A stretch of DNA of 64,000 bases from Candidatus Magasanikiibacteriota bacterium. GTDB lineage: Bacteria > Patescibacteriota > Patescibacteriia > Magasanikbacterales > UBA922. The position numbers and the translations under genes were made by a program. Within the stretch, counting starts at the first letter, position 1; every line of letters begins with the position of its first letter. The notes beneath the pieces are model-generated. The model was not told the origin of the DNA, made no database searches, and saw only the letters and a program-made list of their open reading frames with translations. Below, in pieces: positions 1,546 to 30,308 of the stretch. Where the stretch lies: NCBI GenBank assembly GCA_041674805.1, contig JBAYVA010000004.1, positions 30,069-94,068 on the forward strand. The letters are read 5' to 3'.

Positions 1546-4500
1546 ATGAGTCGTTTTGTCTTAAATCAAGTTTTGAAAATAAAAAACTTGTTGTCAAAAA
1601 TATTACCAAAAAAATTATCCAAATATCATTATTTGGCATTTTTTGTTTCTTCAATTATTTTAGTTTTTATTTTTTCTAGTCATAGTGTAATTGCTGAAGG
1701 TAGTACAGATGTTTTCGGTGGTATCGGTAATTGGGTATCTGGTGCTTTGTTGACTTTTGCTAATTTAGCTATTTTGTTGAGTATTTTCTTTTTGAAATTT
1801 TTTATTCATTTAGCTAGTTACAACAATTATATTGATGTAAATGTCGTAAAAATTGGTTGGGTGATGGTACGTGATGTAGCTAATATGTTCTTTGTGGTTG
1901 CTTTGCTTATTATTGCTTTTGCTACTATTTTAGGTATTGAAAAGTATGAATGGAAAAAAGGCCTAGTCAAGTTGATTGCTATGGCTATTTTGATAAATTT
2001 TAGTAATTTGATAGCTCAAGTTATTATTGATGTAGCTCATGTTTTTACAATTACTTTTTTGAATGCTATTTCTGCTAGTGCTGGTGGTAATTTGATCAAC
2101 ATGTTTGATTTGGCTGAAATAAATACAATGGTTCATGGTAGAGAGCTTGGTTCTGATATGCAACAAGCCAATTATGCCATATTTGGTGCTGCTGTGTTGG
2201 CTCTTATTTTTTCGGTTATTACAGCGGTAACCTTGGGAGCTTATGCTATCGTGATGGCTGCTCGTGTGGTGGTATTGTGGGCTTTGATCATTTTGTCTCC
2301 ATTGGCTTATCTTTTGTCAGCTTTGCCTGATGGTGACAAATATGCTAGTAAATGGTGGTCAGAGTTCAACAGGCATGTGATAGTCGCTCCGGTAATGGTT
2401 TTTTTCTTATGGTTGGCTTTTGCTACTTTTGGTAGCGGCAATATTATGGCTGAAATAAGTAAAAGTGCGACCGTACCTTTGGATACTGGTAGTATTCCTA
2501 CTTCTATATCTTTGTTAGAAGTTTCTACTTGGGAAAATATGGCCAGTTTTATTTTGGGTATTATATTTTTGGTGATTGGTCTAAAAATGACACAGGAAAC
2601 AGGAGCAACTGCTTCTGGTATGGTAAGTGCTGCTGTAGATTGGGGTAAGAAAGTGGCTACTATTGCTAGTGGTTATGCTCTGGGTAGATGGATGGTGGGT
2701 AAGGGCAAGGATGCTGTTATAGAAAACACACCTATTGTTGGTATGCGATCTTTAAGACGTTACGGTAAACAAATAAAAGGTGTTACTACTTATCCATTCA
2801 AAAGATTTGCTATTGCACGTGATGGGCAAGTTCAAAATTTAGAAAAAAAACGAGAGGATGCAAAAAAAGAAGGTAAAACTTTTAAAAGTTTTGCTTTGGG
2901 TGCTGCTGTACTTGGAGCTACAGCTCTTTGGAGTTCTTCAAAAAGAAAAGACACTCTGGCCGATAATTGGGAGGATATTGCTGAACATATGGATAGAGAG
3001 CATGAAGCAAAAATATCTACAAGTAGAACTCCAAGTGGTGATTTAAAACAAACTGCTCGTGTGAGAGCTGATTTTGCTGTGGAAGCTAAAGATACAAAAG
3101 GTCCTCAAAAAGGTGCTGAACGTGCTTTAAAACTTATAAAAGAAAATGATAAATCAGTAGTAGATTCTTTGAAGGCTATGTCTTCATCAAAATCAAAAGG
3201 TGAGGTTGTAACTGGTTTAGTTGATGAAGTTAAACGTGAAAAATATTTGAAAGAAAGAGATAAAGATCAAATTTTAGACAAAAAAACAGATGATGATACT
3301 TATATGAAAATTTTGGCACGAAAGAAAGTTTTTAATGAAAAATTTCAAGAAACTGTTGATACTGATAGGGATTTAATGCAAGAAGATACTAGATTACATT
3401 TACATGATACAGATGATAATTATAAAAATTTAGATAATAGATCTACAGAAGCTGGAGAAAGATTGACTCAAGCAAAAAATTTATATGCTAAACGTATGGA
3501 TGAAGGCTCTGCTGTTGAAAAAGCTAAACTTATGGAAGATGATAAATTCAAGAAGAGAGAGCAGGAGTTTGGAACTCTTGAAGCTAGAACAAAAGCTATA
3601 ACAGAAGATGTTAATTCTCAAAAAGAATTATATTTATTGAAAGCTATTAAAGAGATTTTAGGAGAAATAACATTAGATACAAAAGGTAATATGACTGGTC
3701 CAGAAGATAATGTTTATAGAAGATCTTTTGTTTCTAAAGCGGCTGTAGAGAGATTGAAAGATGGTGTGGAAAGAACACAAATTTCTTCGTTGGCTTCAGC
3801 TAGAGCAGAAGGATATGAAAAAGAATCTGATGATTTACGTGCTAATTCTGTAAGAAAAAATGCTGCAGCTGAAATACAAAAAAGAGATACTGAAATGTTT
3901 GCTAATTTGAGTTATCAAGATAGACGTTTATTAGAGCAGACATTGATTGTCAAAATTCAAGAAGCTGAGGATAAAGGAGATACAGATCTTTTGAAAAAAC
4001 TTAGAATGCAAAAAAATTCTTTGACTACTTTGAATATGTTAGATGACGCTGAAACTTCTCGTGATACTCGTATTGATGCTTTAGATAAATTGGGTATTAA
4101 CGAATTAGGAGATAAAAATCGTTTAAAAGCAGAATTGCAAAGACGTCTTGGTGTTCATACAACAAAACTTGAAGCAGTTTCTATGGATGAGGGCGAACAA
4201 ATAGCATATCTTCAAAAACTTTTTGATGATTTATATGAAGGTCAAGAAGTTCAAAAACAGATTGTTTTGGAACAAATAGAAAAAGCTATGAAATCTGTTG
4301 CTATGAAAGGTGATGAATATGGTCTTGGTCTTATCAATTCAACACCAAGTAGTGATGATATAGCTTCTGGTACAATAACAAGATCTTGGAAAAGTAAAGC
4401 CGATAATGACGAGACAGATTATTTTGCTACAAGAGCTAGAGGAGTTGATAGTATTGAAGGTTATGCTAAATTAAAGAAAATTGGTGATAAATATAAAATA

Positions 4501-4800
4501 AATGGTTTTTCTAAAAGAGGGGTAAACTCAGTTTCATTTTTTTTCAAAGGTGTTGATTCTCGTTCTATGGCAGCAGAGAGTATGAAATCTGTAAGTAGTT
4601 CTGTTAATGAAGCTTCTGTTGATTCATCAAATGTAGATGAATATTTGGATTTTTTAGAGAAAACAAAAAGTTTAATGCAAAGTAGTGGTTATGAAACAGC
4701 AAAAAAACAGTGGGAACCTTTTATTGAAAAATTGGAAGCTGAGGCAGATTTTAAACAAAAGGAAAGATTAAAAGAAATTTTAAAAAAAAAGGAAGATTAA
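1546..4800 (+). CDS. VirB6/TrbL-like polytopic membrane protein with long charged coiled-coil C-terminal extension
   Basis: First roughly 420 aa hold 7-9 predicted TM helices in a TrbL/VirB6-like arrangement. The remaining roughly 650 aa are K/E/D-rich and heptad-like. It heads an operon with PrgI-like and VirB4 genes. Confidence 0.45.
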   Translation: MSRFVLNQVLKIKNLLSKILPKKLSKYHYLAFFVSSIILVFIFSSHSVIAEGSTDVFGGIGNWVSGALLTFANLAILLSIFFLKFFIHLASYNNYIDVNVVKIGWVMVRDVANMFFVVALLIIAFATILGIEKYEWKKGLVKLIAMAILINFSNLIAQVIIDVAHVFTITFLNAISASAGGNLINMFDLAEINTMVHGRELGSDMQQANYAIFGAAVLALIFSVITAVTLGAYAIVMAARVVVLWALIILSPLAYLLSALPDGDKYASKWWSEFNRHVIVAPVMVFFLWLAFATFGSGNIMAEISKSATVPLDTGSIPTSISLLEVSTWENMASFILGIIFLVIGLKMTQETGATASGMVSAAVDWGKKVATIASGYALGRWMVGKGKDAVIENTPIVGMRSLRRYGKQIKGVTTYPFKRFAIARDGQVQNLEKKREDAKKEGKTFKSFALGAAVLGATALWSSSKRKDTLADNWEDIAEHMDREHEAKISTSRTPSGDLKQTARVRADFAVEAKDTKGPQKGAERALKLIKENDKSVVDSLKAMSSSKSKGEVVTGLVDEVKREKYLKERDKDQILDKKTDDDTYMKILARKKVFNEKFQETVDTDRDLMQEDTRLHLHDTDDNYKNLDNRSTEAGERLTQAKNLYAKRMDEGSAVEKAKLMEDDKFKKREQEFGTLEARTKAITEDVNSQKELYLLKAIKEILGEITLDTKGNMTGPEDNVYRRSFVSKAAVERLKDGVERTQISSLASARAEGYEKESDDLRANSVRKNAAAEIQKRDTEMFANLSYQDRRLLEQTLIVKIQEAEDKGDTDLLKKLRMQKNSLTTLNMLDDAETSRDTRIDALDKLGINELGDKNRLKAELQRRLGVHTTKLEAVSMDEGEQIAYLQKLFDDLYEGQEVQKQIVLEQIEKAMKSVAMKGDEYGLGLINSTPSSDDIASGTITRSWKSKADNDETDYFATRARGVDSIEGYAKLKKIGDKYKINGFSKRGVNSVSFFFKGVDSRSMAAESMKSVSSSVNEASVDSSNVDEYLDFLEKTKSLMQSSGYETAKKQWEPFIEKLEAEADFKQKERLKEILKKKED

Positions 4801-5891: not shown

Positions 5892-7148
5892 ATGGCCGAT
5901 AATAAACAAGCCACAATTTTGGTAAAAAAAGCTGACGGTACAAAAGTACGCGTTACTCTTGAGGAATTCAAAAAAATGCGTGAAGGAGAAAAGGGGAATG
6001 GAGAAACATCCCAAACGTCTGGCAAGAGCGGAATGAGTGACAATGAACAGAATGTGATGAACAATGAGCTAATAACCCCGCTAGAAAATAATATTCAAGA
6101 AGAAAAAATGTTTGTCACTTCAGCTTCTGTACCTCTATCACCAGCTGTTACATTGTTAGAAAATGAACAAGTTTTAGCAAAAGAACAAAATGATGTACCT
6201 GTAGCAGAAGAAAATGAATTGGCAACAACTACACCAGTGACAGATATTTTTGTCAATGAAGCTGCTGCAAATTTTGAATGGGGTCAAAAAGACAATGAAT
6301 CACTTTTAGAAGAAGACAACAAAGAAGTAGTGGCTTTGCAAAACAAAGGTAAAGTGCATGTGGCTATGCATGATTTGAATGAACATATCAAAATGCCTAG
6401 TATGGGAATAGATGATGATATGAAAAATCGTGCTAAATCTTTGCTTATTTCTTGGCAAAAAGGTATTAGAAATGATTATCAGATTTTGGATTATGCTAAA
6501 CGAGATATCAATCACGGTGGTCTTGGTTTGGATGATGATCAAGCCAATAGATTTTTGAATCAAATAAAAAATTACAAAAATAATTTAGACAATTTGTTTG
6601 AAATAGTTTTTGAAAAAAAGAAACAACAAGTTATCTTGAATACTAATACAAAAAATGTTGTTGATGCTACATCAAAAAATGAAGTCCTAAACATAAATCC
6701 AGAAAATTTTAGAAAAGAAATTGCCAAAAATACTATTACAGATGATAATTTTTTTAGTGCTCCTTTTTCTCATACGCCACCAAAATCTGTTGTTTATGAT
6801 GTGGCTTCACCACAATCATTGAAACAAAAAACAACTGGACCAAAACAAGAAATATCCGAATTTTCATTAGTAGAATTTCGTCGTTTTGCCAAAGATCCTT
6901 ACAAATGTGCGGATATGTTATTTTCAAAATTTCAATCTTGGAAACAAGAATCTTATTTGTTGTTTTTAGATACTATGGAAGGTTGGCACTTGAGTCCTTT
7001 GTACAATATGTATGTCAGAGCAACCTTGGAAGCTTTCAACAAACATATTACTTTACAACAATTTTTTCAGACAAAAAATCCTAATGATTTTATTACTTTT
7101 GAAGAATACAAAAGTTTGATAGAGTTAAACGACAAGTTAAGTAAGTAG
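5892..7148 (+). CDS. hypothetical acidic protein (T4SS-cluster associated)
   Basis: Start sits 3 nt after the upstream stop; D/E-rich; no recognised domain. Confidence 0.5.
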   Translation: MADNKQATILVKKADGTKVRVTLEEFKKMREGEKGNGETSQTSGKSGMSDNEQNVMNNELITPLENNIQEEKMFVTSASVPLSPAVTLLENEQVLAKEQNDVPVAEENELATTTPVTDIFVNEAAANFEWGQKDNESLLEEDNKEVVALQNKGKVHVAMHDLNEHIKMPSMGIDDDMKNRAKSLLISWQKGIRNDYQILDYAKRDINHGGLGLDDDQANRFLNQIKNYKNNLDNLFEIVFEKKKQQVILNTNTKNVVDATSKNEVLNINPENFRKEIAKNTITDDNFFSAPFSHTPPKSVVYDVASPQSLKQKTTGPKQEISEFSLVEFRRFAKDPYKCADMLFSKFQSWKQESYLLFLDTMEGWHLSPLYNMYVRATLEAFNKHITLQQFFQTKNPNDFITFEEYKSLIELNDKLSK

Positions 7149-7153
7149 TTTTT

Positions 7154-7591
7154 ATGCAACAGTTTGTAGTACCACAATTTATTGAAGTAGAAGACAAAAT
7201 TTTTGGTCCAATTACAGTGAGACAGTTTCTTATATTATTAGTCACTGGTACTATTATCTTTTTTTCTTTTCGTTATGGAGATTTTTATTTGTTTCTTTTG
7301 TGCTTAGTTTTTTTTGGAGGTTTGGGTCTTATTTTCTCTTTTGTAAAAATAAATGGACAAAATTTTCATTATTTCATATTGAATGTTATACAAAGTTTAA
7401 AAAAACCAGATTTGCGTGTTTGGCACAAACATTATGACAAAGTTGAATTAAATTATTTACGTAAACGTGTTTTTGTTGTAGAGAGTGTTGACAAAAAACA
7501 AAAAAAAGTTCAAAAAAAACATATTAGAGATTTGGCTTTACTGGTGAATACTGGAGGATTTTATAAACCAGATGATGATTTTTCTTTTTAG
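7154..7591 (+). CDS. PrgI/VirB3-like small membrane protein
   Basis: N-terminus VPQFIEVEDKIFGPITVRQFLILL matches the PrgI-family pattern (P..L..V.TK..F.LT.RQ) followed by two TM helices; lies immediately upstream of VirB4. Confidence 0.5.
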   Translation: MQQFVVPQFIEVEDKIFGPITVRQFLILLVTGTIIFFSFRYGDFYLFLLCLVFFGGLGLIFSFVKINGQNFHYFILNVIQSLKKPDLRVWHKHYDKVELNYLRKRVFVVESVDKKQKKVQKKHIRDLALLVNTGGFYKPDDDFSF

Positions 7592-7652: not shown

Positions 7653-8339
7653 ATGCAAAATAAAAAAGCTTTAAAAAAAATAAACAAAAAACCAAATACG
7701 CAGACATATTTGCCTATTGCTGAAATTAGAGATGATGTTGTGGTTTTGAAAGATGGCACTTTGCGAGCAGTACTTATTACTTCTAGTATCAATTTTTCTT
7801 TGAAATCAGAAGACGAACAAAATGCTACAATTTCTTCTTATGTAGGATTTTTGAATTCTTTGGATTTTCCTATTCAAATTAGTGTGCAATCTAGACGTTT
7901 GCAAGTCAAACCTTACTTAGAGAAATTGATGGACCAAGAAAAAAAACAAACAAACGAATTATTGCGCATCCAAACAGCTGATTATCGTTCTTTTATTGAA
8001 GAGTTAGTAGATATTGGCAAAATAATGACCAAAAAATATTATGTGATAGTTCCTTATGATCCTTTGTCTAATAATAAAAAAAGTTTTTGGTCAAGGTTCA
8101 AGGAAGTTGTCAAACCAGCAATTTCTTTACGTCTAAAAGACGAAAGATTCAAACAAAGAAAAGATGGTTTGGAAATGCGTGTTAGACAAGTATCTAGTGG
8201 TTTGGAAAATATGGGTTTATCTGTAGCGCAGTTAGATACACAATCATTGATAGAATTATATTATAATACTTACAATCCAGATATTGCTTTTGCAGAACAA
8301 TTGGGTGATATCGAAAAACAGCAAATAGAGGAGTTGTAA
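7653..8339 (+). CDS. VirB4/TrbE-like ATPase, N-terminal domain fragment (split gene)
   Basis: YLPIAEIRDDVVVLKDGTLRAVLITSSINFSLKSEDEQ...FPIQISVQSRRL resembles the VirB4 N-terminal (CagE/TrbE/VirB) domain. It stops 38 nt before the ATPase ORF. Confidence 0.5.
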   Translation: MQNKKALKKINKKPNTQTYLPIAEIRDDVVVLKDGTLRAVLITSSINFSLKSEDEQNATISSYVGFLNSLDFPIQISVQSRRLQVKPYLEKLMDQEKKQTNELLRIQTADYRSFIEELVDIGKIMTKKYYVIVPYDPLSNNKKSFWSRFKEVVKPAISLRLKDERFKQRKDGLEMRVRQVSSGLENMGLSVAQLDTQSLIELYYNTYNPDIAFAEQLGDIEKQQIEEL

Positions 8340-8377
8340 GTGTTTAGTTATTAAAAAAATAGTATATAATCATAAAT

Positions 8378-10255
8378 ATGCCTTTTAGACCTATTTCAAG
8401 CAGTAATATAAAAAACTTCAAAGATTACGAGCTTGAAGATAAAGAAAAAATAAAAATTAAAGAAGATTTAATATCTCTTGAAGAAGAGCGTGTTTATCGT
8501 GAAGGTACGGTGGCAATACGTGATCTTATTGCGCCCTCAGCTTTCAAAGTAGAACCAAATTTTTTACAATTGGGTGATACTTTTTTGCGTACTATTTTTG
8601 TAACTAGTTATCCTCGTTATATTGGAGTTGGTTGGAATGCTTCTATCCTCAATTTGAATTTGAGTATGGATGTTAGTATGTTTTTTTATCCTGTTAACTC
8701 TGCGGTAATTTTGAAACAATTAAAAAATAAAGTAGGTGCTTTGCAAGCACAATTGTCTTCAGACGCTGAAAAAGGCGCTGCCCGTGATCCTTTGAGAGAG
8801 ACAGCTTTACGTGATATAGAATCTTTGCGAGATGATTTGACTCAGGGTACTGAACATTTTTTTCAATTTGCTTTTTATATTACACTGTACTCAACAAGTA
8901 AAGAAGAATTGGACAAACAAACTGATGATTTGCACAATATTTTTGGTTCAAAATTGATTCATAGTAAACATGTTTTGTATCAATCTGAACAAGGCTTCAA
9001 TTCTACAATACCATTGGGAGTAGATGAATTAGTTATTTCTTTTAACATGAATTCATCTCCGATTGCAGCTTCATTTCCTTTTATATCCTCAGAGCTTACT
9101 AGTGATGATGGTATTTTGTATGGTATCAACAGACATAATAATAGTTTGATTTTGTTTGATAGATTTTCTTTGCAAAATGCCAATATGGTAGTATTTGCTA
9201 CTTCTGGTGCTGGTAAATCTTATGCTGTAAAATTGGAAATTTTGCGTAGTTTGATGATGGGTATTGATGTAATTGTAATTGATCCTGAAATGGAGTATGT
9301 TCATTTGTCTGAAGCTGTAAATGGTACTTATGTAAATATTTCTTTGGCTTCTGATAGTAAAGTAAATCCTTTTGATTTGCCAAGACCTGTTGGTCAACAA
9401 GTTTCAACTGAAGATGTGATTAGAAGTGCTGTCATTACTTTGAAAGGTTTGTTGCGTATTATGTTAGGTACTATAAATTCTACAGAAGATTCTATTTTGG
9501 ATAGAGCTTTGCTTGAGACTTATGCCAAAAAAGATATTACTATAAATAGTGATTTGTCTACTGTTGAAGCGCCTGTGATGCAAGATTTGCTGGATGTTTT
9601 GTCTGGTATGGATGGAGCTGAAAATTTAGTAATTAGATTAAAAAAATATACAGATGGTACTTTTGCTGGCTTATTCAATTCTCCAACCAATGTAAATACA
9701 AGTAATCAACTTGTGATATTTAGTGTGCGTGATTTGGAAGATGAATTGCGTCCAATGGCTATTTATACTTTGGTCAATTATATTTGGAATATTGTGCGTT
9801 CTGAAAAAAAGAAAAGATTACTTATGATAGATGAAGCTTGGTGGCTTATGATGCACGAAGATAGTGCCAAATTTATGTATGCTTTGGTCAAGCGTTGTCG
9901 TAAATATTTCTTGGGAGTAACAACTATCACTCAAGACGTCAATGATTTTTTGCGTTCTCCTTATGGACAAGCTATTGTGAACAACTCATCTATGCAATTG
10001 CTTTTAAAACAATCTCCTTCAGCAATTGATACTATTCAAAAGACTTTTATGTTGACAGAAGGTGAAAAATATTTGCTTTTGGATAGTCCGGTAGGACAAG
10101 GTATTTTCTTTGCTGGCAACAAACATGTGGCTATTCAAGTAGTTGCTTCTTATACTGAAGATCAATTGGTCACTACCAATCCTCAACAGCTTTTGGAAAT
10201 AGAAAGAGCCAAAAAAGATTTTCAAGATAAAATGAATAATGAGTATTTATCATAA
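8378..10255 (+). CDS. VirB4/TrbE-like conjugal-transfer ATPase, ATPase domain
   Basis: Walker A VVFATSGAGKSYAV, Walker B/DEAW motif LLMIDEAWWLM, and ITQ motif in GVTTITQD, all typical of VirB4/TraC. Confidence 0.65.
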   Translation: MPFRPISSSNIKNFKDYELEDKEKIKIKEDLISLEEERVYREGTVAIRDLIAPSAFKVEPNFLQLGDTFLRTIFVTSYPRYIGVGWNASILNLNLSMDVSMFFYPVNSAVILKQLKNKVGALQAQLSSDAEKGAARDPLRETALRDIESLRDDLTQGTEHFFQFAFYITLYSTSKEELDKQTDDLHNIFGSKLIHSKHVLYQSEQGFNSTIPLGVDELVISFNMNSSPIAASFPFISSELTSDDGILYGINRHNNSLILFDRFSLQNANMVVFATSGAGKSYAVKLEILRSLMMGIDVIVIDPEMEYVHLSEAVNGTYVNISLASDSKVNPFDLPRPVGQQVSTEDVIRSAVITLKGLLRIMLGTINSTEDSILDRALLETYAKKDITINSDLSTVEAPVMQDLLDVLSGMDGAENLVIRLKKYTDGTFAGLFNSPTNVNTSNQLVIFSVRDLEDELRPMAIYTLVNYIWNIVRSEKKKRLLMIDEAWWLMMHEDSAKFMYALVKRCRKYFLGVTTITQDVNDFLRSPYGQAIVNNSSMQLLLKQSPSAIDTIQKTFMLTEGEKYLLLDSPVGQGIFFAGNKHVAIQVVASYTEDQLVTTNPQQLLEIERAKKDFQDKMNNEYLS

Positions 10256-10877
10256 ACTAATTGCTATTTTTATGTTTACATTTAGACAAAGAATTTTTAT
10301 TTTTTCTGGTATTTTTGTGGGATTGGTTTTGGTTATTTTATTATATTTTTTTTATATAAAACCAAAAAACAATAAGCAAGAGAACACACCAGAAGTTGTG
10401 GTCAATGAAAATATTGTAGACAGCAATAATCCTAATTTAATTTTTGATAATTTAGCAAATAATAATCAAGTTATAAGTAAACCAGACGGAACACCAGAAG
10501 AACAATTTTTGAAACAGATGTCTAGATTTTTTGTAGAAAGATTTTTTACTTATTCTAATCAAAATAACAATGTTCATATTGTAGAATTACAAAGTTTGGC
10601 AACACCAAGTATGAATACTTGGATGAATACACAAATGAGAAAAAAAGAGCAAGACTATAGTGGTGTTACTACTAGAGTTTTTAGTATGTCTCTTATTAAT
10701 TTTGACAAAAATTTAGCAAAAGCTTCTGCCATGGTAGATGCTGAACATGTTATTTCTATTGAAAAAGATAATCAAGTAGAACAAAGTAAAACACAAAAAA
10801 AATACCAAGTAGATTTTGAATACGTTGATAATACTTGGAAAGTCTCAGCTGTTTGGGACAAAACTTTAAGCAATTAA
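10239..10877 (+). CDS. single-pass membrane protein, possible VirB8/PrgL-like
   Basis: N-terminal TM helix plus a roughly 160-aa extracytoplasmic domain. Its position after VirB4 mirrors Gram-positive T4SS order. No motif-level proof. Confidence 0.3.
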   Translation: MSIYHKLIAIFMFTFRQRIFIFSGIFVGLVLVILLYFFYIKPKNNKQENTPEVVVNENIVDSNNPNLIFDNLANNNQVISKPDGTPEEQFLKQMSRFFVERFFTYSNQNNNVHIVELQSLATPSMNTWMNTQMRKKEQDYSGVTTRVFSMSLINFDKNLAKASAMVDAEHVISIEKDNQVEQSKTQKKYQVDFEYVDNTWKVSAVWDKTLSN

Positions 10878-10885
10878 TTTTTTAT

Positions 10886-11578
10886 ATGATTTTGGGAGGA
10901 ATTGTCAATTCTTTAAAAGATATTTTTTTTCCAGTAAATTGTTTAAACTGTGCCAAAGAAGGTGCTTTTGTTTGTAATGAATGTTTTGAAACACTAGATT
11001 TGTCTGGTGTTTTTTGTTGTCCTATTTGTCACAAAGAAACTATTGATGGAAATTATTGTGATAATTGCCAACCTTTGTTTATAGACAAACATGTCGCTGC
11101 TATCAAATATTTAGAAACAGATTTGATAGGGGAGATAATCCATAATTTCAAATATCAGTATGTAGAAGATTTGGATAAAATAATTGAAAAAATGTTGATA
11201 AATTTTTTTGCAAACAAAAAAATAAGTGATATAGATTTAATAACTTTTGTGCCTTTGCATAGTCGTAGATATGTAGAAAGAGGATTCAATCAAGCTGAAA
11301 AAATAGCAATACTTTGTGGTAAAATTTTACATAAGCCGGTTACTAATTTACTCAAGAGAACTCGATATACACATCCACAAGCTCAGTTCAAAAGACAAGA
11401 AAGATTAGTGAATTTGCAAAATGCTTTTTCTTTAGAGAATAAAAAAGATGTGTTTGCCAAAAATATTTTGGTAGTTGACGATGTATTTACTACAGGTTCT
11501 ACTATTCAGGAGTGTGCTAAGGTCTTAAAATTGCATAAAGCTGCTAATGTATATGGTTTTAGTTTAGCTAGAGGTTGA
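10886..11578 (+). CDS. comFC: ComF family protein (ComFC-like, zinc-ribbon + phosphoribosyltransferase domain)
   Basis: CLNCAKEGAFVCNECF...CCPICHKETIDGNYCDNCQ double zinc ribbon and C-terminal PRTase motif ILVVDDVFTTGSTI. The start is set at the MILGG Met rather than the overlapping upstream TTG. Confidence 0.7.
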   Translation: MILGGIVNSLKDIFFPVNCLNCAKEGAFVCNECFETLDLSGVFCCPICHKETIDGNYCDNCQPLFIDKHVAAIKYLETDLIGEIIHNFKYQYVEDLDKIIEKMLINFFANKKISDIDLITFVPLHSRRYVERGFNQAEKIAILCGKILHKPVTNLLKRTRYTHPQAQFKRQERLVNLQNAFSLENKKDVFAKNILVVDDVFTTGSTIQECAKVLKLHKAANVYGFSLARG

Positions 11579-11642: not shown

Positions 11643-12158
11643 TTATTTTTTTTGCATTTTTAAAAAGAAAATCATTAGTATAAAAGCAGTAAGTGACATC
11701 ATAGGTATTGTAACATAGCCAAACTCCAAAATATATAATTTGGTACAAGAGACAGCAGTATCACAAGCAATACTATTTTCAGTACCTAGGTAATAAAGTA
11801 AATTTTGATAGACACCAATGATAGCTCCTAATATTGTCAATGTTAAAGCGTATAAGTAAGAATGTTTAAATTCTTTTTTGAAGTAAGCAATACCCAAAAA
11901 TATTGCTTGAGGATAAATAAAGACTCTTTGCCACCAACATAAAGAACATGGTAAATAGCCAACTATTTCAGAATAATACAAACTAAGTAAAGCAGAAAAA
12001 AGAGCCATTAGCCAAGCTAATAGTAGACCATATTGTCCAAAAAATTTCTTGGCCAAGTTGTTTTCTTTTTTCCAAAAAATATAAATCAAAACTACAATTA
12101 AAAAAATGTGTGATAAAAGTGTGCCTGTAGCTAAAAGTTTGTTTACTATTTCGATCAT
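11643..12158 (-). CDS. disulfide bond formation protein B (DsbB/BdbC family)
   Basis: Four TM helices, with the CSLCWWQR motif and second Cys pair (CDTAVSC) characteristic of DsbB/BdbC. Confidence 0.65.
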   Translation of the reverse strand: MIEIVNKLLATGTLLSHIFLIVVLIYIFWKKENNLAKKFFGQYGLLLAWLMALFSALLSLYYSEIVGYLPCSLCWWQRVFIYPQAIFLGIAYFKKEFKHSYLYALTLTILGAIIGVYQNLLYYLGTENSIACDTAVSCTKLYILEFGYVTIPMMSLTAFILMIFFLKMQKK

Positions 12159-12168
12159 ATTTTTTATA

Positions 12169-12549
12169 TTAAGGTAATTGACAACTTGTTTTTTCTGCTA
12201 ATTCTTGCAAAGATAATTCACCAGATTGTCTACTACCATCGGCAAATATCCAAGTAGGATAGCCTTCTATTTTTTGATTAGTACAGACAGGTAATTGTCC
12301 ATTGCTATCTACAGTAGAACATTCTACATATGGTAAGTATTTGGCAGATTTTCCAAAAGTTTCTTTTTGGGCATTACAATGTGAACACCAAAAAGCGCCA
12401 TAAAAAACAGCCCCTTTGTCTTGTAAACATTTGGCAAATTCATCTAGTTTGCCAGGTTTTTGGTTGTAAGAGACTAAACTATAAATAGCAATACTTAAGA
12501 TAATAATTATGATTGAAATTATAGTAATATTTTTTGTTTTTTTATTCAT
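12169..12549 (-). CDS. membrane-anchored thioredoxin-fold thiol-disulfide oxidoreductase
   Basis: N-terminal TM helix and WCSHC active-site motif; co-transcribed with DsbB. Confidence 0.6.
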   Translation of the reverse strand: MNKKTKNITIISIIIIILSIAIYSLVSYNQKPGKLDEFAKCLQDKGAVFYGAFWCSHCNAQKETFGKSAKYLPYVECSTVDSNGQLPVCTNQKIEGYPTWIFADGSRQSGELSLQELAEKTSCQLP

Positions 12550-16262: not shown

Positions 16263-16844
16263 TGTTTTTAGATATTTTATAAATTTATCAAAGTCTTTGT
16301 ATAAATAAGATTCTATACCTAATTCTTTGGCAATCTCTATATTTTTTACATCATCATCTAAATAAAATATTTCTTTTGCTGGAATATTTAGATTATCTAA
16401 TATGAATTCATAAAATTCTTTAGTTGGTTTTTTGTGTCCAATATAAGCTGAAGAAAAAATTCCATCAAATAATTCTCCAAATTTCATTTTATTCTTCAAA
16501 TATTCTGTGCGGTATTTTTCTTGATTGGTGGCTAAATAGCACTTTATACCTTCTTTTTTTAATTGATTTATAAATTCTATAACTTTTTCATCGATATTAT
16601 TTTCATGTTCAAACCACTGTTTTAGAAATTCATCTACACTTTCATTCCATTGCCATTTTACTAGCCATGGTTTAATTACTTCTTTTAGGTCTGCTTTGCC
16701 TTTCATGCAGTCTTGAAACACTCCTGTAAAAAATGGTAACATTTCTTCTTTTGGAATATTATTTTTTTGACTGTAGTGATTACTAAACATTTCAGATAAA
16801 ACGACTACACCATCTGTGTCAAAAAGAAAAACTTTGTATTTCAT
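16251..16844 (-). CDS. HAD-superfamily hydrolase
   Basis: N-terminal DxD motif FLFDTDGVVV and HAD motif III/IV (YLDDD). Confidence 0.65.
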   Translation of the reverse strand: MKYKVFLFDTDGVVVLSEMFSNHYSQKNNIPKEEMLPFFTGVFQDCMKGKADLKEVIKPWLVKWQWNESVDEFLKQWFEHENNIDEKVIEFINQLKKEGIKCYLATNQEKYRTEYLKNKMKFGELFDGIFSSAYIGHKKPTKEFYEFILDNLNIPAKEIFYLDDDVKNIEIAKELGIESYLYKDFDKFIKYLKTKTD

Positions 16845-16864
16845 AATTTTCTTAATAAAACGTT

Positions 16865-16888
16865 AGGGACAGGTCTAGACCTGTCCCT
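16865..16888. terminator. perfect palindromic hairpin between clpP and HAD genes
   Basis: agggacaggtctagacctgtccct (11-bp arms) immediately downstream of the clpP stop. Confidence 0.55.
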
Positions 16889-16906
16889 ACAATTTATATA
16901 ATATTA

Positions 16907-17518
16907 TTATTTCTCAATCACTTTGTCTACCAAACCATATTTTACAGCTGCCTGAGCACTCATGAAATTGTCACGGTCTGAATCATTTTCGATAGTAGTT
17001 AATTTTTGACCAGTGTGTTTTTGTAAAATTGCGTTTAGGTTGTCTTTCATTTTTAGTATTCTTTCAGCGTGAATCTTGATATCACTAGCTTGGCCTTGAG
17101 TGCCACCCATGACTTGGTGAATCATGACTTCACTGTTTGGCAAGCAAAATCTTTTGCCTTTGGCTCCTGCGGCTAATAAAACTGAGGCCATACTAGCTGC
17201 CATACCAATACAAATAGTAGATACATCAGGTTTTACAAATTGCATAGTGTCGTAGATAGCTAAGCCAGCTGTGACTGAACCACCAGGGGAATTGATATAT
17301 ATTTTGATATCTTTTTCTGGATCTTGATTGGCCAAGAATAATAGTTGAGCTATCACAATATTAGCGACTTGGTCATTGATTTCTGTGCCCAAAAAAATTA
17401 TTCTGTCTTTGAGTAGTCTGGAATAAATATCATAAGCACGTTCACCATAACTAGTCTTTTCTATAATAGTTGGGATGAGGATTTGAGAAGTTATCTCTTG
17501 GTTGGAAGAGTTGTTCAT
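16907..17518 (-). CDS. clpP: ATP-dependent Clp protease proteolytic subunit
   Basis: ClpP signature around the catalytic Ser ([11 protein letters not shown]), His (MIHQ) and Asp; full-length, about 200 aa. Confidence 0.9.
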
Positions 17519-18573: not shown

Positions 18574-18752
18574 ATTTGTCTTATTTTACAGCCAGCCATT
18601 ATATCTGATATTCATATTATTGTCAACTATCAAGAAAAAAGGTATAATAGATGTAATTTGTAGAATAACTATTACTTATTTTATAGTTTGTCTTATTTAT
18701 ACAGTTTTTAGTTAAAAGTTTGTAAAGTTCATTCCGCCCAAGGCGGACAAGA

Positions 18753-18818
18753 AAGTTTATAAAGTAATTTGATTGTATATTTATTTTAAAAAACTTTATA
18801 AACTTTTAACTTTATAAA
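18753..18818. repeat. cluster of TTTATAAA-core motifs (ACTTTATAAAC / GTTTATAAAGT) upstream of smc
   Basis: aagtttataaagt, then actttataaac twice. Same family as the motifs at 28915-29009 and 50093-50133. Confidence 0.55.
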
Positions 18819-18895
18819 CTATTTTTATAATAAAATGATATATACTTTAGAAAGTAGTATTTTGTTTAATATTTAATTTATCGTTTGAGTAGTGT

Positions 18896-28906: not shown

Positions 28907-28914
28907 TGTATTTA

Positions 28915-28983
28915 GTCCATAAAGTTTATAAAGTCTATAAAGTAAAAAGTTGTGATTTTACGGACTTTATAAACTTTATGGAC
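28915..28983. repeat. perfect 21-bp inverted repeat (GTCCATAAAGTTTATAAAGTC ... GACTTTATAAACTTTATGGAC) between gmd and fcl
   Basis: Arms at 28915-28935 and 28964-28983 are exact reverse complements, with a 28-bp spacer. A third half-site, ggactttatgaac, lies at 28997-29009. Confidence 0.7.
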
Positions 28984-29002
28984 TTTAAATTTTAAGGACT
29001 TT

Positions 29003-30062: not shown

Positions 30063-30308
30063 ATGTCTGAAATCAAGCCCAACGAAGTATATACAACTAC
30101 AGAAGCTCAAGATTTACTAAAAATTAGTAGTAGTACCATGAAACGCCTGCTTAAACAAGGTCTTATTCGTGCTAATAAGATTGGTAAACAATACAGAATT
30201 CTTGGTCATGAACTTTTGCGTTTGCTTTCGCCTGTTGTAGACCAAAGGGTCACTGATTTATATCAAAAGGTGAAGATAAAAACAATTGAGAAAATTGATA
30301 AATGGTAG
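30063..30308 (+). CDS. small helix-turn-helix DNA-binding protein (excisionase/MerR-like HTH_17)
   Basis: YTTTEAQDLLKISSSTMKRLLKQGLIRANKIGKQYRI pattern of excisionase-family HTH domains. Confidence 0.5.
   Translation: MSEIKPNEVYTTTEAQDLLKISSSTMKRLLKQGLIRANKIGKQYRILGHELLRLLSPVVDQRVTDLYQKVKIKTIEKIDKW

Follow-up and report, generated by a model that had tools for sequence, protein, structure and literature searches.

The 64,000-nt stretch of DNA analysed here, referred to as the window (contig JBAYVA010000004.1 of a Candidatus Magasanikiibacteriota bacterium, positions 30,069 to 94,068 of the forward strand), carries a run of genes for a type IV secretion system (T4SS), in which the sequence corresponding to the ATPase VirB4 is divided between two neighbouring open reading frames, ORF1 and ORF2. 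This two-gene arrangement is ancient and conserved, selection acts on it, and the two parts complement each other. The genes and features of the locus are as follows.

1546 to 4800, + strand: polytopic membrane protein of 1084 amino acids (aa), the first in the same-strand run, with nine hydrophobic segments in its first ~350 residues
4870 to 7148, + strand: two soluble proteins of 339 and 418 aa, lying in the tightly packed run after the polytopic protein and ahead of the PrgI-like gene
7154 to 7591, + strand: small membrane protein of the PrgI family (VirB3-like; Pfam PrgI), 145 aa, two hydrophobic segments
7653 to 8339, + strand: ORF1, TrsD-like protein of 228 aa, corresponding to the first ~200 residues of VirB4, the initial part of its N-terminal domain, as a detached piece
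8340 to 8377, no strand: intergenic gap of 38 nt, with stops in both relevant frames
8378 to 10255, + strand: ORF2, VirB4-family ATPase of 625 aa without the first ~175 residues, comprising the rest of the N-terminal domain and the P-loop C-terminal domain
10239 to 10877, + strand: 212-aa protein with one N-terminal membrane segment, its start overlapping the end of ORF2 by 17 nt (10239-10255)
10835 to 11578: ComF-like phosphoribosyltransferase with a double zinc ribbon, listed from a TTG and so overlapping the preceding gene by 43 nt (10835-10877)

The junction between ORF1 and ORF2

ORF1 opens with an ATG at 7653 and closes with a TAA at 8337-8339, and ORF2, counted from its ATG at 8378, is offset from it by two bases ((8378-7653) mod 3 = 2). 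The A+T-rich gap between them holds a second stop in the ORF1 frame (TAA, 8352-8354), and the ORF2 frame carries a TAG at 8360-8362, upstream of the ORF2 start. The coordinates, the lengths, the 38-nt gap, the change of frame and the in-frame TAG had all been described in the original prediction and were verified on the sequence. That prediction had considered a natural two-polypeptide VirB4, a pseudogene and an assembly error. An artificial break made by an indel during sequencing or assembly has hardly any probability: nothing but the change of frame speaks for it, and the 38 non-coding nucleotides contain stops in both frames, so that no single indel could join ORF1 and ORF2. Furthermore, 228-aa homologues of ORF1 with 84-94% identity are found on other contigs from other sources (ENA, JGI, Logan and NCBI), and the same layout recurs in finished plasmids of cultured bacteria.

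All genes between 1546 and 10877 lie on the same strand, with short gaps or overlaps, and no terminator-like hairpin was found in the gap between ORF1 and ORF2. A promoter scan returned 42 sigma-70-like sites, compared to 37.6 +/- 6.3 expected, which is at chance level and uninformative. A TATAAT hexamer (8365-8370) that lies 7 nt ahead of the ATG of ORF2 was considered as a signal for a leaderless transcript and rejected, as the hexamer is expected by chance at the G+C content of the window (29.7%). No Shine-Dalgarno-like motif is present within 25 nt upstream of any of the 18 window genes inspected (starts 56 to 29003, ORF2 included), and the regions upstream of these starts are almost pure A+T, which suggests that initiation in this organism is independent of such motifs. 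The missing motif was also rejected as an argument against independent initiation of ORF2, since none of the 18 genes has one.

Two parts of one VirB4

The ORF2 protein scored 354 bits against the NCBIfam model NF045971 (CD1110-type VirB4-like conjugal transfer ATPase; cut-off 325), covering positions 175-734 of 752, and stayed under the cut-offs of the other VirB4 models; in the VirB4_plasma model it starts at position 258 of 894. Its Pfam matches are P-loop_TraG (103 bits, cut-off 25.8), AAA_10 and DUF87, residues 240-599 match the C-terminal domain of VirB4 in PDB entry 4AG5 (E 4.6e-45), and the Walker A (ATSGAGKS) and Walker B (LLMIDEAW) motifs are legible in the translation. ORF2 therefore has the P-loop C-terminal domain of the VirB4-family T4SS ATPases, and its best 120 homologues are of similar size (584-642 aa). 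A complete N-terminal domain was not found in the ORF2 chain, and the missing segment is encoded by ORF1.

Homology of ORF1 to the N-terminal portion of VirB4 was found with three models (VirB4_plasma, positions 90-284 of 894, E 1.5e-9; CD1110, positions 5-118 of 752; PRK13853, positions 11-120 of 789), with Foldseek and with BLASTP to a fused VirB4 described below. ORF1 and ORF2 are complementary because they cover non-overlapping VirB4 model positions. No Pfam match to ORF1 was obtained even at E <= 1, using a copy of Pfam without PF26593, the precomputed family given for ORF1 homologues. The stand-alone TrsD/TraD model of NCBIfam (NF041427, 201 positions) matched ORF1 at E 3e-6, and by its sequence ORF1 is a remote relative of TrsD/TraD and not a member by NCBI's criterion. 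The genetic setting is that of NF041427-type proteins, namely a stand-alone protein of ~200-230 aa between a VirB3-like gene and an N-terminally shortened VirB4. A set of 38 homologues served to build a structure model of ORF1, with a predicted local distance difference test score (pLDDT) of 70-90 in the core. The top 14 PDB matches to this model in Foldseek were all TrwK, the VirB4 of R388, with probabilities of 0.90-1.00 over ~190 aligned columns. It is this fold comparison that links ORF1 to TrwK, as the sequence search of ORF1 against PDB chains returned nothing at E <= 10.

An identical ORF1 protein is on record from a 743,922-bp contig in a metagenome-assembled genome (MAG) of Candidatus Magasanikbacteria, and 7231 homologues were found at E <= 1e-3, the best 120 of which are 211-258 aa long. 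Stand-alone homologues of ORF1 and of ORF2 number in the thousands each. The view of ORF1 as an N-terminal piece of VirB4 was thus borne out, while its treatment as an anomaly of this genome was not, since it belongs to a known stand-alone (TrsD-like) family.

In VirB4 of R388, the N-terminal domain comprises residues 15-400 and the C-terminal domain residues 400-823 (PMC9259494). In model coordinates, the boundary between ORF1 and ORF2 falls at about canonical residue 175-200, and ORF2 retains ~240 residues ahead of its C-terminal domain, the 4AG5 match beginning at residue 240. The break consequently lies inside the N-terminal domain. The original prediction was right in recognizing two pieces of VirB4 and misplaced the break, which it had put at the boundary between the N-terminal domain and the ATPase.

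Relatives of the pair were also found on plasmids, where a tblastn search with ORF1 returned 42 records. Geobacillus plasmid pGspE55-1 encodes PrgI (102 aa), a 318-aa 'hypothetical protein' and a DUF87/VirB4 protein of 636 aa, the last being 29% identical to ORF2 (E 1e-80), and a Planococcus plasmid encodes 'TrsD' (344 aa) followed by a DUF87 protein (624 aa). On the haloarchaeal plasmid NZ_CP083668.1 of Haloprofundus halobius (L084, 3650-6603), a 349-aa ORF1-like protein precedes a 633-aa 'transfer complex protein' related to ORF2 (E 3e-46). Since this haloarchaeal plasmid has the same split, the two-gene form crosses the boundary between bacteria and archaea.

A fused form is encoded on the Rubrobacter marinus plasmid NZ_CP045122.1 (L083, 3638-7672) as a single protein of 1344 aa. 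ORF1 aligns to its residues 118-313 (BLASTP, E 1e-11) and ORF2, from residue 33 onward, to its residues 357-973 (E 4e-59), while residues 32-93 show a weak PrgI/VirB3-like match and ~370 extra C-terminal residues extend beyond the VirB4 core. As judged from these alignments, the order PrgI-ORF1-ORF2 along the Rubrobacter chain is the gene order of the window, which is the most direct evidence that the two products represent pieces of one VirB4.

It could be argued that ORF1 is an accessory protein of VirB4 N-terminal descent which has taken on a new role, for example in regulation or as an adaptor for substrates, without completing the fold of VirB4. The similarity of ORF1 to canonical VirB4 is remote, and many of its relatives are further extended at the C-terminus (up to 443 aa in total length; 318-349 aa on plasmids), both of which would suit such a role. 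However, what ORF2 is missing is precisely what ORF1 provides, the parts of the fused protein from Rubrobacter run collinearly with PrgI-TrsD-VirB4, and homologues of ORF1 and ORF2 are adjacent in all 76 informative loci of the comparison described below. In addition, trsD is essential along with other T4SS genes in Ca. Southlakia (PMC12102498). We therefore regard an accessory role as unlikely.

Conservation of the split and of its surroundings

The comparison of orthologous loci, which the original prediction had proposed, was carried out by script on 80 loci from distinct GTDB species with ORF1 identities of 56-87%. Four contigs stop short of ORF2, which leaves 76 informative loci. The split is kept in every one of them (76/76): a stop codon terminates the ORF1 homologue, and the ORF2 homologue comes after it as an ORF of its own. 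A continuous ORF in orthologous loci, the finding that had been named as pointing to a sequencing error or a recent pseudogene, does not occur (0/76). The gap between trsD and virB4 measures 1-472 nt (median 15), and no more than 10 nt in 34 loci, where often just one base separates the stop from the ATG, and the frame relations 0, 1 and 2 are found in 23, 31 and 22 loci, respectively. The ORF2 homologue has its own start codon, and in nearly all loci an ATG is followed by a Pro or Ala codon. Pairwise ratios of non-synonymous to synonymous substitution rates (dN/dS), calculated against the closest loci, were 0.05-0.16 for ORF1 and 0.06-0.11 for ORF2; both ORFs are under strong purifying selection.

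When 1.84 billion cluster representatives were scanned exhaustively with HMMER, 2325 relatives of ORF1 were retrieved. The best 150 of these are 132-443 aa long and 35-73% identical to ORF1 over the matched stretch (35-59% for the near-full-length ones), and none of these 150 is fused to an ATPase. Many of the remoter relatives reach 300-443 aa (P0254, P0275, P0298, P0300, P0305 and others), the homologous part being N-terminal and followed by an extra C-terminal extension of 100-200 residues.

These data bear on two further explanations. A recent frameshift or nonsense mutation that turned a single virB4 into a pseudogene would account for the pattern in the window itself, where adjacent ORFs lie in different frames and their summed length equals that of a canonical VirB4, and for nothing beyond it. 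The split persists down to 56% ORF1 identity with all frame relations and gaps of 1-472 nt, dN/dS is about 0.1 for both parts, the start of ORF2 is conserved, and the fused form is missing from the best 150 of the 2325 cluster representatives, leaving this explanation with a negligible probability. Programmed recoding, whereby frameshifting or stop read-through would join the ORFs into one VirB4, is only marginally less improbable. The 34 gaps of 10 nt or less would fit some form of coupling, but these are more simply explained by translational coupling through termination and re-initiation. Moreover, gap length and frame vary freely, the long gaps hold many stops and unrelated hairpins, the junctions differ so much that a conserved slippery site is impossible, and ORF2 always has its own ATG. 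ORF2 would be initiated independently, with translational coupling in the relatives with gaps of 1-10 nt. The conserved split, the variety of gaps and frames and the dN/dS values together rule out a recent pseudogene as well as an assembly error and programmed recoding. Thus, two of the options in the original prediction, the pseudogene and the assembly error, are refuted, whereas the third, a natural two-polypeptide VirB4, was correct, given the 76 split loci, the purifying selection and the thousands of stand-alone homologues.

The long spacers between trsD and virB4 (60-470 nt) are usually long, near-perfect palindromes of lineage-specific sequence, located at ~6650-6900 in each of the loci concerned (L002, L006, L011, L012, L016, L020, L021, L032, L053, L055 and L062). 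Twelve of 18 long spacers fold at z <= -4.8 relative to mononucleotide shuffles, the spacer of L016 reaching -61 kcal/mol (z -16). These spacers resemble inserted hairpin elements, similar to miniature inverted-repeat transposable elements (MITEs), or very long terminator or stabiliser stems inside an operon. Intergenic inverted repeats are also present in the window, at 28914-28984, 18749-18825 and 16843-16910, with arms of 34-38 nt that lie 0-1 nt apart; a repeated 'CTTTATAAAC/GTTTATAAAG' motif is common to the first two, and the repeats may belong to the same type of element as the spacer hairpins of the related loci. A role of the hairpin spacers as a junction-specific regulatory element was set aside, as similar long palindromes occur in other intergenic regions of the window and none in the window's own ORF1-ORF2 gap.

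A separate observation concerns the labels of the related records. L011, L012, L013, L017, L025-L027 and ~30 more loci come from MAG records titled 'uncultured Gammaproteobacteria bacterium', and their ORF1 and ORF2 homologues are 57-83% identical to Magasanikbacteria proteins, in identical gene order. These appear to be Patescibacteria genomes under a wrong taxonomic label.

The conservation extends to the flanking genes. All 76 informative loci have a PrgI-like gene upstream of the ORF1 homologue, and that of the window scores 31.1 bits against Pfam PrgI (cut-off 27). A homologue of the 212-aa protein lies downstream of virB4 in 64 of the 76; its sub-threshold similarity to Pfam TraE (E 0.0013, 18.6 bits, cut-off 24.8) is a weak indication of a possible VirB8-like component. 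The 1084-aa protein at the head of the run has no Pfam family and is, by its position and topology, a candidate VirB6-like channel component. Neither of the two soluble proteins that follow it has a Pfam match or hydrophobic segments, and the 418-aa protein, the one of the two compared with NCBIfam, has no match there. Because the listed TTG start of the ComF-like gene overlaps the preceding gene by 43 nt, its true start is probably further downstream. Next to the T4SS gene run, genes for a DsbB-like membrane protein and a thioredoxin-fold protein lie on the - strand (11643-12549), a pair that hints at the formation of disulfide bonds outside the cytoplasm in this organism of small genome.

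Proposed function and comparison with known systems

Considering all of the evidence, we put the probability at roughly 0.88 that ORF1 and ORF2 are two separately translated chromosomal T4SS genes, the TrsD-like ORF1 supplying ~200 residues that are absent from the VirB4 ORF2 and completing it non-covalently. In the R388 system, VirB3 is wrapped about VirB4's N-terminal domain, the tails of VirB8 bind this domain on the outer subunits, and the VirB4 dimer interface is made wholly by N-terminal domains (PMC9259494). ORF1 and ORF2 would be co-transcribed with the upstream PrgI/VirB3-like gene, and, on the most parsimonious view, the TrsD-like protein would bind the shortened VirB4 non-covalently, complete its N-terminal domain and link the ATPase to PrgI/VirB3 and the membrane channel. 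PrgI, TrsD and VirB4 would then jointly perform what VirB3 and VirB4 do elsewhere, that is, dock the ATPase onto the membrane channel.

Several points weigh against this interpretation. The score of ORF1 in the NF041427 model (27.2 bits) is far under the cut-off of 200, and the structure model is of moderate confidence (mean pLDDT 65), with modest Foldseek E values of 3e-3 to 8e-2. Similarly, the alignment of the ORF1 family with TrsD of the Staphylococcus aureus plasmid pGO1 is collinear but weak (hhalign, E 2.8e-4, probability 41%, 120 columns). Co-transcription is deduced from the spacing of the genes and the lack of a terminator, and the contacts of TrsD with VirB4 and with PrgI are likewise ones that we infer.

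A more tentative idea, of low probability, is that detaching an essential segment of ~200 residues may not be neutral and could allow the cell to control independently how many TrsD copies there are per VirB4, as an assembly or regulatory step in the T4SSs of monoderms, Patescibacteria and haloarchaea. Capping might, for instance, be confined to the 'central' or to the 'outer' VirB4 subunits of the inner-membrane complex, or C-terminally extended TrsD variants might be swapped. If true, this would be a T4SS step that single-chain VirB4 systems lack. For annotation, the pair should be neither flagged as a pseudogene nor merged, and ORF1, which most public records call a 'hypothetical protein', merits the name of a TrsD-like or VirB4 N-terminal-piece protein.

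The arrangement itself is already known. In a survey of Patescibacteria T4SSs (Quinonero-Coronel et al. 2025, PMC12102498), TrsD outnumbers all other T4SS components of the phylum, with 2272 homologues from 2221 assemblies, 1664 of these homologues being associated with VirB4, and is described as remotely homologous to the VirB4 N-terminus and without assigned function. The statement of homology rests on this source, as the word TrsD is absent from the main text of Guglielmini 2014. The survey further lists as essential the TrsD homologue adjoining VirB4 in Ca. Southlakia epibionticum ML1. The T4SS of Ca. Southlakia epibionticum is essential for epibiotic growth (Wang et al. 2023, PMC10633639), a requirement known only from transposon sequencing (Tn-seq) of this one Patescibacteria species tested (PMC10633639; PMC12102498). 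The window shares with the surveyed systems the phylum, the set of PrgI/VirB3, TrsD and VirB4, and the adjacency of TrsD and VirB4; trsD and prgI/virB3 homologues lie close to its virB4, and the pair is one more instance of the described arrangement. No statement that Patescibacteria VirB4 lacks the TrsD segment was found in the available part of the survey. What is added here, a modest clarification, is explicit evidence that this VirB4 lacks exactly the segment supplied by TrsD, together with a collinear fused relative.

The layout of the window is also like that of the conjugative plasmid pGO1, in which a 135-aa VirB3-like gene is followed by trsD (227 aa) and, after a 14-nt gap, by trsE (672 aa), which encodes a VirB4 ATPase without its N-terminus, as does ORF2. 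From its residue 49, ORF2 aligns to pGO1 TrsE from residue 36 onward (E 5e-48). The trsD-trsE pair of pGO1, like traD-traE of pSK41 and pIP501, is the prototype of one subclass of the mating-pair formation type MPF-FATA. In contrast to pGO1, which carries a relaxase and a coupling protein, the window locus is chromosomal and lies among housekeeping genes, with neither a relaxase nor a coupling protein among the genes scanned within ~18 kb of it. Finally, canonical TrwK of R388 (823 aa; PDB 7O43 and 8RTD) has the same fold as ORF1 and the same P-loop C-terminal domain as ORF2, but it is one polypeptide, just as VirB3-VirB4 fusions are one chain, whereas the window distributes these parts over two or three polypeptides.

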